Shown: positions 12,722-18,973 of the stretch, in pieces | Layout: each line of letters starts with the position of its first letter | Numbering within the stretch: the stretch's first letter is position 1 | From: Candidatus Kaiserbacteria bacterium | GTDB lineage: Bacteria > Patescibacteriota > Minisyncoccia > Phycocordibacterales > Phycocordibacteraceae | DNA: 64,000 nt | Assembly (NCBI GenBank): GCA_016217905.1 | Contig: JACRFL010000013.1 | Coordinates: forward strand, 3,184 to 67,183 | Direction: 5' to 3' | Position numbers and translations under genes: made by a program | Notes under the pieces: generated by a model | Told to the model about the DNA's origin: nothing | Seen by the model: only the letters and a program-made list of their open reading frames with translations | Database searches by the model: none

Positions 12722-12964
12722 CTATTCCGGATCGCGTGAATAGCGAATCCAGGCGAGCCATGCAAGCAATCCCGCGAGAATCACGGAAAGCGGAATAACA
12801 ATGCATTCATTCCGGAAGATAAGCGCATAGGCGAGCGCGAGGAGGATGCCTCCGATGAGGAACAGCGCCCTCTTCAATCGGTACTCGCGAGGCGGCATAC
12901 TCTCCGCATAACCGCGCCATACGCTGATCAGCATCCATGCCACCAGGAGGCCGACGAGTACCAT
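12722..12964 (-). CDS. Small two-helix membrane protein; likely the displaced C-terminus of the upstream gene
   Basis: 80-aa ORF, but the same frame is open and start-less for 98 further codons up to 13258 (Gly/Ser-rich linker ... LLGLPPGFFEF). Confidence 0.4.
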   Translation of the reverse strand: MVLVGLLVAWMLISVWRGYAESMPPREYRLKRALFLIGGILLALAYALIFRNECIVIPLSVILAGLLAWLAWIRYSRDPE

Positions 12965-13146
12965 GAGCGGAATGAGAAGGCAATCGAACGATGCGGAGAA
13001 TTCGAAGAAACCGGGCGGCAGGCCAAGAAGTGCGGCGGCCGCGAGCGTGCCCCCCGCTTCTCCCGCGGTCTCCCCGCTTGAGGTCGCTTGCGCGCCCTTC
13101 GCGCCCCCTTCAGTCGGAGTCTGAAGCGCGACATTCCCCCCGCCTT

Positions 13147-14133
13147 CTATCGTTTTGCCGCCTCCGGAGGAAGACCCGGGAGCGGGCGTCGAACCGCCCC
13201 CACTGGACTGTTCGTCGAACCGCCTGCTTGCGCCAACAAGGGCACCGTGAACCGGCGCTCAACGCTTATCGTCGGCGGCGAGGCCCGAGAGATGACGCGG
13301 TATACGTACGTCTCTCCCGGCGTCAGACCGGTGAGTAAGAAAGAATGATTCGTTACTTTCGTCGTGTCTTCGGGAGTGGCGAACGGGTAGCCAAAATTCG
13401 GAGGTATCAGGACCAGAGCGTAGGGGCCGCCGGAGACCGGGCCATAGACGACCTGGCTGGTCGAGAGAAGATTTGTTTCCCACGTTATCGTGGCTAGTCC
13501 GGACTGGCCCACGTTCGATATGTCGAGGGCTTTTTCGTTGAATATGAAGAGACTGTTCCCAATCGATCCCCCGCCTCCTCCTCCGCCAGAACCAAGAATA
13601 GTCCCACCGCCCGGCGGCGTTCCACCTCCTCCGCCGCCTTCGCCTCCTACGACCGTGTTGCCGCAGCGGGTGGTACCCCCGTTGAACCCGACGCATACGT
13701 CGAAGCCGAGCGTCTTTCCTTGATACGAATTATCGCTTGAATCGATGAAGGAAACGTTGTACGTGAACGTCTTTGATTCTCCGTTTCCAATCGCACCGAG
13801 AGGGACTTCACCGGCGGTCGAGAGGAAATTCGCAAGAGAGTCGTCGAAGAGTGTTCCGCTGTTCCCGGTTATAGAGAGATGCAGAAGGGCGCTGAAGTTG
13901 CCGGCATCAAAAACATTAATGGCTTCGGTCAAGACGTTTTGTGTCGCGCCGGAATTATTGGTGACCGTAACGGTGCCGGCCGTCGAGTCGAGCGGAAGAA
14001 AATTCGATTTGTTGAACAGCGGATCCGGGACGAACTGGACGCCAAGCGGCGCCTGTGCCAAGGCAACGCCGGCGAAGCCCGTCAGAGAGAGGGCGACGAC
14101 CGGCAGTATCGAGATTTTAAGAAAGTTCTTCAT
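13147..14133 (-). CDS. Secreted protein with FN3-like domain and poly-Gly tracts
   Basis: ATG 14133, 5 nt after the upstream stop. Signal peptide MKNFLKISILPVVALSLTGFAGVALA. ATITWETN...LTGLTPGETYVYRV FN3-like signature. Confidence 0.65.
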   Translation of the reverse strand: MKNFLKISILPVVALSLTGFAGVALAQAPLGVQFVPDPLFNKSNFLPLDSTAGTVTVTNNSGATQNVLTEAINVFDAGNFSALLHLSITGNSGTLFDDSLANFLSTAGEVPLGAIGNGESKTFTYNVSFIDSSDNSYQGKTLGFDVCVGFNGGTTRCGNTVVGGEGGGGGGTPPGGGTILGSGGGGGGGSIGNSLFIFNEKALDISNVGQSGLATITWETNLLSTSQVVYGPVSGGPYALVLIPPNFGYPFATPEDTTKVTNHSFLLTGLTPGETYVYRVISRASPPTISVERRFTVPLLAQAGGSTNSPVGAVRRPLPGLPPEAAKR

Positions 14134-14137
14134 ACGT

Positions 14138-16758: not shown

Positions 16759-16798
16759 CCTGCCGATACTCGAGCGCTACTCGGTCAAGAGAGATCTC

Positions 16799-18127
16799 TT
16801 ATTCAGGAGTGTAGGGCGGACGACTCGCAATACTCGTGCACCTGAAGCCAGAGTTGCTCCTTGTTTGCTCTGCGTACGCCGTCAAAGACGCCGAGAATGA
16901 ATCCGACTGCGCAATGTTACCCATTCCAGAACCGTTGCAGCCGAATGCGCTGCCTGGAGTAGCGGTGAGCGTTCCTGCACACCATACAAGACCGATATTC
17001 TTGGTAGTGGTGGCGGTGAGGAATTGACCATTGCTGGGATCCATACTCATGATGCTGGTGAGCGATGAGAGCGGTCCGACGCCGCCGAGAGGAGTCTCGC
17101 CCACGTCATAGAGACCATTCCCGTTGGTATCTCCCCAGGTGAATACATTGAGGAAGTTGGATAACTCGCCTTTTCCAGTTGGATTACCAACCCCGTTCGC
17201 GTCACCCGCTGCTATTTCAGGAGCGAGTGGTTGTGCCGGGTTCTCTTGGTCATCTTTGTCGCCCACGATAAGGCATGAGTAGGCATCGTTGCTCGACACA
17301 TGAAGCGATATTTCATTTGTACCCCAGTCAGCCGGCTTTACATCTCCAAAGTTGAAGAATGTATCTCCTTGGCCAAGGTCCTTTTCCGTCCAAAGCCGGC
17401 AGACCTGCTGGAAGGCAGAATCTGCTTTACACTGCGCCGGATCACGATGAATATTCAGCTTGAAGAGAAGTCCAGCCGGATTCCCTGAAGAGCCTCCGCC
17501 GGCAGACATGTTACGAACAACTATGTCAAGCGTGTTCTGTCCGTTCACCATCGCTCCCATGAAGGCGGCCTCTTGAGCGCCAGTCAAGGAAACAGCCGGA
17601 TTATAGTTGAACTCGAGAGGGAGCTTATCGACAATAGTTGTTCCGTTGAGGATAATCTTGTACCCGTTGTCAGCCGCGAGAGCGAGATCTAAGTTCACGC
17701 TCACGACAGAGCCGTTCCACTGGAACTTGTTCTCGAATGTGTACTCTGCGTTATTGGTCGTATCGTTCAACGTTGTCGGATCAGTCGCCCAGATCCACTG
17801 CGCCGGAGCGAGAGCGGCTTCGCTCTGCCAGGCCGGATGTGGGCTGCTCACGTCAACAGCCGGAATGGGGAAAGGACCCTGATTTGAGGCTCCCGCGCTT
17901 GCTGCCACGACCTTTGTTGCTGTAGAGCTGTACACATTCACACTGCACGTCTCACAGTCTACGCCATTGTAGGTCTGCTTCGTGTGATCCACCTTGAGGT
18001 CAATGGAACCCGCGGTGAAGATGTTGCCCGTCGAGGTCTCGGTGTCAGCGTAGAACGCGATGGTCCCGCCGACCGCGAGAGCCGCGACGACCGCTATCGT
18101 CCCAGCGCTAAGAAGAATTTTATTCAT
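16799..18127 (-). CDS. TasA/CalY (camelysin, M73)-family secreted protein, long paralogue
   Basis: N-terminus AVGGTIAFYADTETSTGNIFTAGSIDLKVDH matches the SipW-dependent signal/TasA core. Shares ISLHVSSNDAYSC and the C-terminal CNGS...FRC motifs with 18149..18973. Confidence 0.75.
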   Translation of the reverse strand: MNKILLSAGTIAVVAALAVGGTIAFYADTETSTGNIFTAGSIDLKVDHTKQTYNGVDCETCSVNVYSSTATKVVAASAGASNQGPFPIPAVDVSSPHPAWQSEAALAPAQWIWATDPTTLNDTTNNAEYTFENKFQWNGSVVSVNLDLALAADNGYKIILNGTTIVDKLPLEFNYNPAVSLTGAQEAAFMGAMVNGQNTLDIVVRNMSAGGGSSGNPAGLLFKLNIHRDPAQCKADSAFQQVCRLWTEKDLGQGDTFFNFGDVKPADWGTNEISLHVSSNDAYSCLIVGDKDDQENPAQPLAPEIAAGDANGVGNPTGKGELSNFLNVFTWGDTNGNGLYDVGETPLGGVGPLSSLTSIMSMDPSNGQFLTATTTKNIGLVWCAGTLTATPGSAFGCNGSGMGNIAQSDSFSASLTAYAEQTRSNSGFRCTSIASRPPYTPE

Positions 18128-18148
18128 GTTCTTTTGTTAGGCTGGTGA

Positions 18149-18973
18149 CTATGCCGACCTCGGTGAACAAAGGAATCCTGGATTGTTTCGAGATTGCACT
18201 GCACGGAAGCTCACATCAGCAGTCAAACTGTCGGTCTGCGTGATGTTGTTTACCTGGGAACCATTGCAGACGATACCTCCAGTTGAATTGGCCGGGGTTC
18301 TTGGGCTGGTCGTACCCATCCCATCCTGCTCAAGAGGAGCTGCCGAAATAGCGCCAAAACACCACGCCTTACCGATGAAGCGCTCTGAACCGCCCGGCAA
18401 TGGACCTCCTTCATCCGTCCAGATGTTCGTTTGAGAGTCAGCGAGGGCAACCGACGATGTCGCTGAGGCCGAGGCAAGCGTTCCCGAAGGGAGCGGCGTT
18501 TCGTTGTTCTCTAGAACATTGTCTCCGTCGTCAGCCCACCACATGAAGTTTACTGCCTGTGCCAATTCTCCGTTACCGGCACCATCTGATACATCACCAT
18601 CCTGCCTTTCCGGTTCCGTAATACCGTTATCATCGTTACTCGTCAGCTTTACGTCAGCACAAACGTAGGCATCGTTGTTGTTTACGTGGAGACTGATAGT
18701 GTCCTCCCCTCGATCGCCTGGCTTAAGATCAAGAAAATTAAAGAATTTCTCAATCGTCAAATCCTTTAATTCCCAAGTCGTGTCTTGATTCAGAACACCG
18801 TTATAATAACTTTCGTTATCAACCTTCAGATCAATCGCGCCGGCGGTGAAGGTGTTGCCGGTTGATGTCTCCGTGTCCGAGAAGAACGCCCCTGTCGCGC
18901 CTAAAGTGGCCGCAACGACGAACACAATCACTCCCAGACTCAAGAGAATCCTTTTGTTAAGAAGTGCTGTCAT
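18149..18973 (-). CDS. TasA/CalY (camelysin, M73)-family secreted protein
   Basis: ATG 18973. LGATGAFFSDTETSTGNTFTAGAIDLKVDN closely resembles Bacillus TasA/CalY N-termini recalled from memory. Confidence 0.75.
   Translation of the reverse strand: MTALLNKRILLSLGVIVFVVAATLGATGAFFSDTETSTGNTFTAGAIDLKVDNESYYNGVLNQDTTWELKDLTIEKFFNFLDLKPGDRGEDTISLHVNNNDAYVCADVKLTSNDDNGITEPERQDGDVSDGAGNGELAQAVNFMWWADDGDNVLENNETPLPSGTLASASATSSVALADSQTNIWTDEGGPLPGGSERFIGKAWCFGAISAAPLEQDGMGTTSPRTPANSTGGIVCNGSQVNNITQTDSLTADVSFRAVQSRNNPGFLCSPRSA

Follow-up and report, generated by a model that had tools for sequence, protein, structure and literature searches.

Within a 64,000-nt stretch of a Candidatus Kaiserbacteria contig (JACRFL010000013.1, positions 3,184 to 67,183; hereafter the window, in whose numbering coordinates are given unless a locus is named), we analysed a string of five same-direction genes on the minus strand at 12722-18973. 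This cassette, whose genes are named A to E here, probably represents the Parcubacteria version of the TasA/SipW system, that is, a set of genes for a TasA-type fibre processed by a SipW-like signal peptidase. A and B are TasA-like proteins, C is the peptidase, D is a multidomain protein that shares an N-terminal block with A and B, and E is a membrane-anchored protein devoid of that block. The full model, which also gives D and E roles at the two ends of the fibre, is a more tentative construction that we consider possible but doubtful as a whole. All five open reading frames (ORFs), as well as a short membrane ORF at the end of the string, lie where a preliminary description of this DNA had placed them, and A shows 100% identity with a protein encoded by a Candidatus Kaiserbacteria metagenome-assembled genome (MAG; locus tag HY972_02645). 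The host is hence an ultra-small, tiny-genome groundwater bacterium of the Parcubacteria, within the candidate phyla radiation (CPR).

The TasA-like proteins and their shared N-terminal block

Gene A (18149..18973, 274 aa), the candidate major fibre subunit, and its paralogue B (16799..18127, 442 aa) both scored above the gathering cut-off of 22.5 bits with PF12389 (Peptidase_M73, the TasA/camelysin family), A at 29.8 bits and B at 23.6 bits, the match of B being confined to its N-terminal 40 residues. Both also matched TIGR04088, the model of the SipW-dependent-type signal peptide (21.1 bits for A and 22.3 bits for B; cut-off 19), so that the TasA/M73 homology initially proposed for the pair is borne out. 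Outside an insert of ~190 aa (residues 57-245, 17393-17959), B is 46% identical to A. The insert returned no Pfam match and no meaningful match in the Protein Data Bank (PDB), and the B type including it is kept at 44-63% identity in three related loci (L004, L010, and L011). A itself is strongly conserved, with 60-72% identity across Parcubacteria, and many of its homologues end in a C-terminal SpaA_2 pilin-type domain.

A regular expression for the N-terminal block that had been noted in three candidate substrates, and that we write (F/Y)(F/Y)xDxExSxxNxFxAGx(I/V)D(L/F), yielded exactly three matches in the six-frame translation of the 64-kb window, namely, residues 30-49 of A (FFSDTETSTGNTFTAGAIDL; 18827..18886), residues 25-44 of B (17996-18055), and residues 108-127 of D (15755-15814). 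Each of them lies right behind a hydrophobic segment, and the motif is common to paralogues of otherwise unlike architecture. Residues 1-29 of A constitute a predicted SipW-type signal peptide (within 18149..18973), and alignment to TasA puts the predicted start of the mature protein at residues 30-49, a stretch that is also the candidate for the donor strand. Judging from the alignments, cleavage would occur after A29 in A, A24 in B, and G107 in D.

The mature protein of Bacillus subtilis TasA starts at A28 (AFNDIKSKDATFASGTLDL), as checked against the 8aur chain. An hhalign comparison of the A family with TasA placed A 30-49 over TasA 28-46, with the verified SipW site TWA|AFND opposite TGA|FFSD, F31 opposite F29, and F42 opposite F39; the claimed resemblance of the block to the Bacillus mature N-terminus therefore stands. 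In TasA fibres, each subunit lends residues 28-38 as a donor strand to the next one, whose β-sandwich is thereby completed (Böhning et al. 2022, PMC9674648), and F29, I32, and F39 are its hydrophobic contacts (PMC9674648). An AlphaFold monomer model of A, built on a 40-sequence alignment (mean pLDDT 85.5), displays a TasA-type jelly-roll fold whose best structural match is fibre-form TasA. Foldseek gave a weaker match, to 8aur_A at probability 0.98. Residues 32-43 are the sole internal stretch of this model with pLDDT < 50, and residues 30-49 show an entropy of 0.60 bits versus 1.07 bits for the remainder of the protein across 120 homologues. A segment that is unstructured in the monomer yet highly conserved fits one acting in trans, and it may serve as an N-terminal donor strand inserting into the next subunit.

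The same three proteins could instead be SipW-processed adhesins, exposed on the surface or secreted as monomers or as a coat, in which the block would function mainly as a peptidase-recognition or export signal. We deem this unlikely, though far from negligible. In its favour, TIGR04088 defines only a class of signal peptides, B has an inserted domain, the lamin-tail domain (LTD) and the Ig-like domain of D are of a kind typical for adhesins, and the polymerisation of A is putative. Nevertheless, in the alignment to TasA the block falls on the mature side of the cleavage site and matches the donor strand there, two of its three hydrophobic residues included, and the structure retrieved best by the A model is specifically the fibre form of TasA. 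Export alone would also hardly explain an anchored paralogue that lacks the strand (E) together with a non-TasA protein that bears it (D).

Peptidase C and the cassette in related genomes

Gene C (16159..16704, 181 aa) encodes a SipW-like archaeal/endoplasmic reticulum (ER)-type signal peptidase I with transmembrane (TM) segments at its N- and C-termini. Its score of 99.8 bits against TIGR02228 (archaeal-type signal peptidase I; cut-off 51.85), over 149 of the 158 model positions, agrees with the SipW-type S26B assignment made at the outset. The 106.3 bits obtained with NF046067, the Bacillus SipW equivalog, fall under the cut-off of 190, and C is accordingly SipW-like but not a SipW equivalog. 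Residues S43 (SGSMEP), H82 (THRI), D101, and D107 (GDAN..D) are at least 97% conserved among 54 homologues. We take them to be the catalytic residues, in the Ser/His/Asp pattern without a Lys general base that work on SipW and Sec11 associates with ER/archaeal/SipW-type peptidases. With the M73 and S26B families both matched and the cleavage region aligned to that of TasA, the preliminary description holds where it was most exposed.

The succession of two TasA-like genes, peptidase, LTD protein, and FN3 protein is also present in L004, L010, and L011. Searches of genome contigs with the C protein retrieved only six loci, and a far more productive metagenome scan with a profile of D retrieved 80, across which the same co-directional order recurs in dozens of Parcubacteria contigs. 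Linkage was counted solely in loci with enough flanking sequence: in 53 of 63 the peptidase gene is found upstream of D at a distance of up to 1.5 kb, D is followed by E in 32 of 39 and preceded by a TasA-like gene in 24 of 28, and all four gene classes occur together in 15 of 21. From the peptidase stop to the D start the median distance is 22 nt, and overlap is frequent. A simpler arrangement was evident in L002 and L003, where the peptidase and a short D-like protein come after a row of three or four TasA paralogues, of which many carry SpaA_2. Contigs labelled Saccharibacteria, Kuenenbacteria, and Curtissbacteria likewise combine the peptidase with TasA-like genes. Genes next to the cassette vary between genomes while the cassette stays intact, which indicates that it behaves as an autonomous module. 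The contig of L011 is otherwise syntenic with the Kaiserbacteria window, and between its RRM-protein gene and its TasA cassette (L011:3202-4924) we observed Pfam matches to CsgG, CsgF, and CsgE of curli secretion, odd genes for a CPR bacterium presumed to have no outer membrane.

One uninterrupted ORF of 484 aa in L003 (L003:11438-12892) comprises a SipW-like peptidase (SGSMEP, THRI, KGDAND) followed by a D-like substrate, the latter made up of a TM segment, the motif 'TKAYFNDVEVSIGN' / 'AYFNDVEVSIGN', a β-domain, and an acidic tail. This ORF may be a natural enzyme-substrate fusion or an artefact of gene calling or assembly; the fusion of peptidase and substrate provides a Rosetta-stone-type argument for a functional link. 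On the basis of the conserved adjacency and of this ORF, we infer that C cuts its neighbours A, B, and D.

C could also be the general signal peptidase of the cell, a housekeeping enzyme of archaeal type in a cluster that is related to secretion without any dedicated pairing of enzyme and substrates. It scores equally on the general archaeal model and on the Bacillus SipW model, no LepB-type gene was found among the other ORFs of the 64-kb window, which is part of the genome, and the signal peptide of E is of the ordinary AxA type. We nonetheless regard a housekeeping role as quite improbable in view of the position of the peptidase gene immediately upstream of D in most loci, with stop and start overlapping or nearly abutting, its linkage to TasA-like genes in other CPR classes as well (L005-L007), the in-frame fusion to a substrate at one locus, and the persistence of the cassette amid changing neighbours.

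Proteins D and E

The AlphaFold model of D (14138..16135, 665 aa; pLDDT 73) delineates a basic disordered leader (residues 1-77), a TM helix (residues 80-100, 15836-15898), the donor-strand-type motif, which is unstructured, a confidently modelled β-sandwich (residues 128-263, 15347-15754), an LTD (residues 266-436, 14828-15340), an Ig-like domain (residues 440-547, 14495-14818), and an acidic, disordered tail rich in Pro, Glu, and Ala (residues 553-665). Pfam supports the LTD independently (PF00932, 42.6 bits; cut-off 34.3), and the model gives it the Ig-like fold of this domain. An hhalign comparison of the D and A families (probability 96.7%, E 4e-10) gave an alignment that runs from the last part of the signal peptide through the motif to the 'PGD' strand behind it. 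Hence D is the combination of a TasA-like N-terminus and an LTD that had been predicted, with the TasA likeness limited to the N-terminus and the first strands. Its family comprises 143 proteins at E<=0.001, many with an additional DUF5011 domain, and all named members derive from Parcubacteria-type MAGs; the JGI name of one homologue, P0123, is 'SipW-like signal peptide'.

The unusually long leader of D spans 107 aa with a net charge of +22, and the median is 58 aa in the D family versus 25 aa in the A family. Mature TapA starts at residue 44 and mature TasA at residue 28 (Roske et al. 2023, PMC10151520), a difference that the longer leader of D relative to A parallels. Similarly, D 108-127 resembles the donor strand of the major subunit and follows a SipW-type leader, as expected of a protein in the position of TapA; the analogy is a functional one only. 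A basic, disordered, cytoplasmic extension of ~80 aa precedes the signal-anchor helix of D and is kept in the family.

The 5' part of gene E (13147..14133, 328 aa) encodes a Sec-type signal peptide (residues 1-26) of the AxA kind already mentioned, a β-sandwich N-domain without donor-strand motif (residues ~28-160, 13654-14052), and, behind a poly-Gly linker, an FN3/PAP_N-like domain (residues 205-296, 13246-13521). The FN3 assignment made earlier holds through the FN3-like model Pur_ac_phosph_N (32.7 bits; cut-off 30), with the fn3 model itself staying under its cut-off at 16.6 bits; all 38 E-family members examined (38/38) match Pur_ac_phosph_N. This family amounts to 308 cluster representatives at E<1e-30, its members are mostly 370-520 aa long, and one to three C-terminal TM helices were found in 140 of 150 representatives.

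In the window, the corresponding membrane tail is in another frame. This 3' part (12722..13237) encodes a Gly/Ser-rich linker and a tail of three TM segments, its end being the 80-aa membrane ORF (12722-12964). The frame of this ORF is open from 13258 to 12722 and overlaps the end of E, and the closest relative of E (L012, =P0250) is a single 448-aa ORF with a tail homologous to the out-of-frame one. Since the frame overlaps E and relatives have one continuous ORF with the tail, E and the 80-aa ORF make up a single gene that is interrupted by a 1-base frameshift at some point within 13150-13237, and the membrane tail noted earlier belongs to E. The halves would be rejoined by one extra base, such as a G added to the G5 run (13197-13201). 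The frameshift may be an assembly error or a real mutation.

With the motif excluded, hhalign related the N-domain of E to the first β-sandwich of D over 99 columns (probability 96.8%, E 2.4e-10), and both domains carry strings that are hallmarks of TasA-like proteins, with 'PGD' in an N-terminal strand and N-x-(Y/F)-Q-(G/N) in a C-terminal one. Comparisons of the E or the merged E/D N-domains with the A family or TasA were colinear but not significant (probabilities 0.2-14%). One of 38 E-family members matched PF12389, at E 0.095, and a database search with a motif-less E/D N-domain profile recovered six close relatives only and no PF12389-annotated protein. As the profile matches to TasA and to the A family are not significant, E is put forward tentatively as an acceptor of TasA fold.

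A candidate fibre model, its counterparts, and the surrounding genes

In the model that we propose, A, B, and D would be exported by Sec and cut just before the shared block by C as their dedicated membrane peptidase. The N-terminal segment freed in this way would enter the jelly-roll of the next subunit as a donor β-strand, as in B. subtilis TasA, A thereby polymerising into an extracellular fibre in which B would be a variant subunit with an extra inserted domain. D would act in a TapA-like role, giving the first donor strand and displaying its LTD and Ig-like binding domains at one fibre end; TapA has been proposed to supply the initiating strand (PMC9674648, PMC10151520). E would be the cell-proximal membrane anchor that tethers the fibre, possibly by accepting the strand of a subunit.

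A number of observations weigh against this interpretation. Beyond the N-terminus the similarity of A to Bacillus TasA is weak, with an hhalign probability of 64% and the N-terminus alone aligned, and the TM-scores of the Foldseek match are just 0.35-0.40. Neither phmmer with A nor a profile search with its family matched TasA among the PDB sequences, leaving the relationship visible solely through Pfam and structure, and TasA lacks the four invariant cysteines and the large loops of A. The N-region of D scores 12.3 bits with PF12389, under the cut-off, and nothing at E<=0.1 with TIGR04088; a TasA fold cannot be shown for the N-domains of D and E. C misses the SipW equivalog cut-off and might serve the whole cell, as discussed above, and the system may be defective in this assembly, E being frameshifted. 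The analysis shows homologies, the fold of A, conserved catalytic and motif residues, and a conserved gene order, whereas cleavage by C, polymerisation, and the roles of B, D, and E are inferred. A third interpretation, in which A and B would be secreted camelysin-type (M73) metalloproteases scavenging peptides, takes up the Pfam family name, Peptidase_M73, camelysin, and is highly improbable: none of the cassette proteins contains an HExxH motif, on which ground we rejected it, the fold is a non-enzymatic jelly-roll best matched by the TasA fibre, and TasA, the structurally characterised family member, is structural (PMC9674648).

The closest parallel to the candidate fibre cassette is the B. 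subtilis tapA-sipW-tasA operon for TasA biofilm fibres, which likewise sets an ER/archaeal-type signal peptidase gene beside its substrates; the mature N-terminus can be aligned to the TasA donor strand, and a second, non-TasA protein (D here, TapA there) bears the same N-terminal strand behind a longer leader. Differences are nevertheless numerous. The cassette runs in the order subunits-peptidase-accessory and holds two TasA-like paralogues, one with the 190-aa insert; A differs from TasA in its four invariant cysteines and is only ~15-18% identical to it. D shows no detectable TapA homology and adds the LTD, the Ig-like domains, an 80-aa basic leader, and the acidic tail, nothing in Bacillus corresponds to the fifth gene, E, which is membrane-anchored and strand-less, and the host is an ultra-small CPR bacterium. 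In the Bacillus cereus camelysin locus sipW-calY1-calY2, as in the cassette, SipW adjoins two TasA-family paralogues, one of which has been proposed as initiator (Roske et al. 2023, PMC10151520). The published description of that locus, sipW-calY1-bc_1280-calY2 (PMC10151520), lists neither an LTD protein nor a membrane-anchored FN3 protein.

TasA-like jelly-rolls joined by donor-strand complementation, as proposed here, also build the archaeal bundling pili AbpA/AbpB of Pyrobaculum calidifontis and other archaeal donor-strand filaments, and there too the part of initiator or adhesin has been suggested for an accessory protein of several β-domains. A dedicated peptidase is missing from the archaeal operon (PMC9245690), whereas the cassette embeds a SipW-type gene, and A resembles bacterial TasA more closely than it does AbpA. 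Chaperone-usher pili are comparable in concept only, namely, in the proposed donor-strand exchange with specialised end subunits, an initiator or adhesin on one side and a terminator that anchors on the opposite side; the cassette shows no usher, periplasmic chaperone, outer membrane, or sequence relationship to them.

PF12389 homologues have already been listed for Patescibacteria, among other phyla (Wang et al. 2022, PMC9245690), and the NCBI and JGI pipelines label relatives of the proteins studied here 'TasA family protein' or 'SipW-like signal peptide'. We found no paper that describes the cassette in CPR bacteria, or its peptidase, LTD protein, or anchored paralogue there. Thus, TasA homologues in the phylum have been reported before, and the accessory architecture appears to be undescribed; the advance lies in an annotated architecture and a hypothesis about its presumed function, not in a new kind of system.

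CPR bacteria, or Patescibacteria, are thought to live attached to host cells, and this attachment has been discussed mostly in terms of type IV pili. The cassette may encode a surface fibre for attachment, and the conserved A in a fixed five-gene arrangement with its own peptidase is a concrete candidate, open to testing, for a second system of surface fibres. The natural variants, namely, the strand-bearing LTD protein, the strand-less anchored paralogue, and the peptidase-substrate fusion, could clarify how such fibres start and are anchored. More speculatively, Parcubacteria (Paceibacteria) might widely encode a self-contained, ATPase-free machine for donor-strand-exchange fibres, consisting of a dedicated archaeal-type peptidase, TasA-like subunits, an LTD initiator or tip, and a strand-less membrane-anchored paralogue that accepts the last strand and ties the fibre to the cell, a generalisation that we find conceivable and would not bet on. 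If true, these bacteria would have the fibre as a further organelle for attachment in addition to type IV pili, and it could explain some of the pilus-like appendages of these episymbionts.

The cassette is flanked by housekeeping genes (those of an RRM protein, a PrmC-like methyltransferase, HisRS, and an FAD oxidase, with RpoB/C, DnaG, and RpoD farther off). A higher AT content of the region had been noted earlier. This applies to A (GC 0.512) and B (0.543), not to D (0.606) or to the cassette overall (0.575 versus 0.581 for the window). A horizontal-transfer island was rejected in view of these housekeeping flanks and of a cassette GC equal to that of the window. No tRNA or Rfam elements were detected in the window, and promoter and terminator scans returned nothing informative. 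At a distance of 4 kb from the cassette there is a gene for a DsbA-like thioredoxin (23113-23988); given this proximity, the four invariant cysteines of A, and the eight of B, extracellular disulfides may matter for both proteins.

Other surface-related genes are scattered over the window. A sortase gene (52321-52998; Pfam 81.5 bits) adjoins two large ORFs of 939 aa and 365 aa without Pfam matches, and this segment (48244-52998) may be a separate locus for a sortase-dependent surface protein or pilin. A low-GC segment (0.44-0.52) at 60612-63857 encodes a protein with cohesin and Big_13 domains and a dockerin-containing protein, which suggests surface assemblies of cohesin-dockerin type. Three ORFs of GH130 (mannoside phosphorylase) lie in a row at 616-3710, followed by PMM and a PIF1 helicase, as in L011; the third (3153-3710, 185 aa) covers only the C-terminal half of the domain and may be a split gene. 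Finally, a secreted protein with Big_13 and LCAT-like lipase/esterase domains is encoded ~2.5 kb past the 3' end of the cassette (8887-10224). A lipase homologue also occurs ~3.6 kb upstream of the cassette in L002 (L002:368-3325) and near it in no other locus, and the 445-aa protein of the window matches solely the C-terminal lipase part of this 985-aa homologue.

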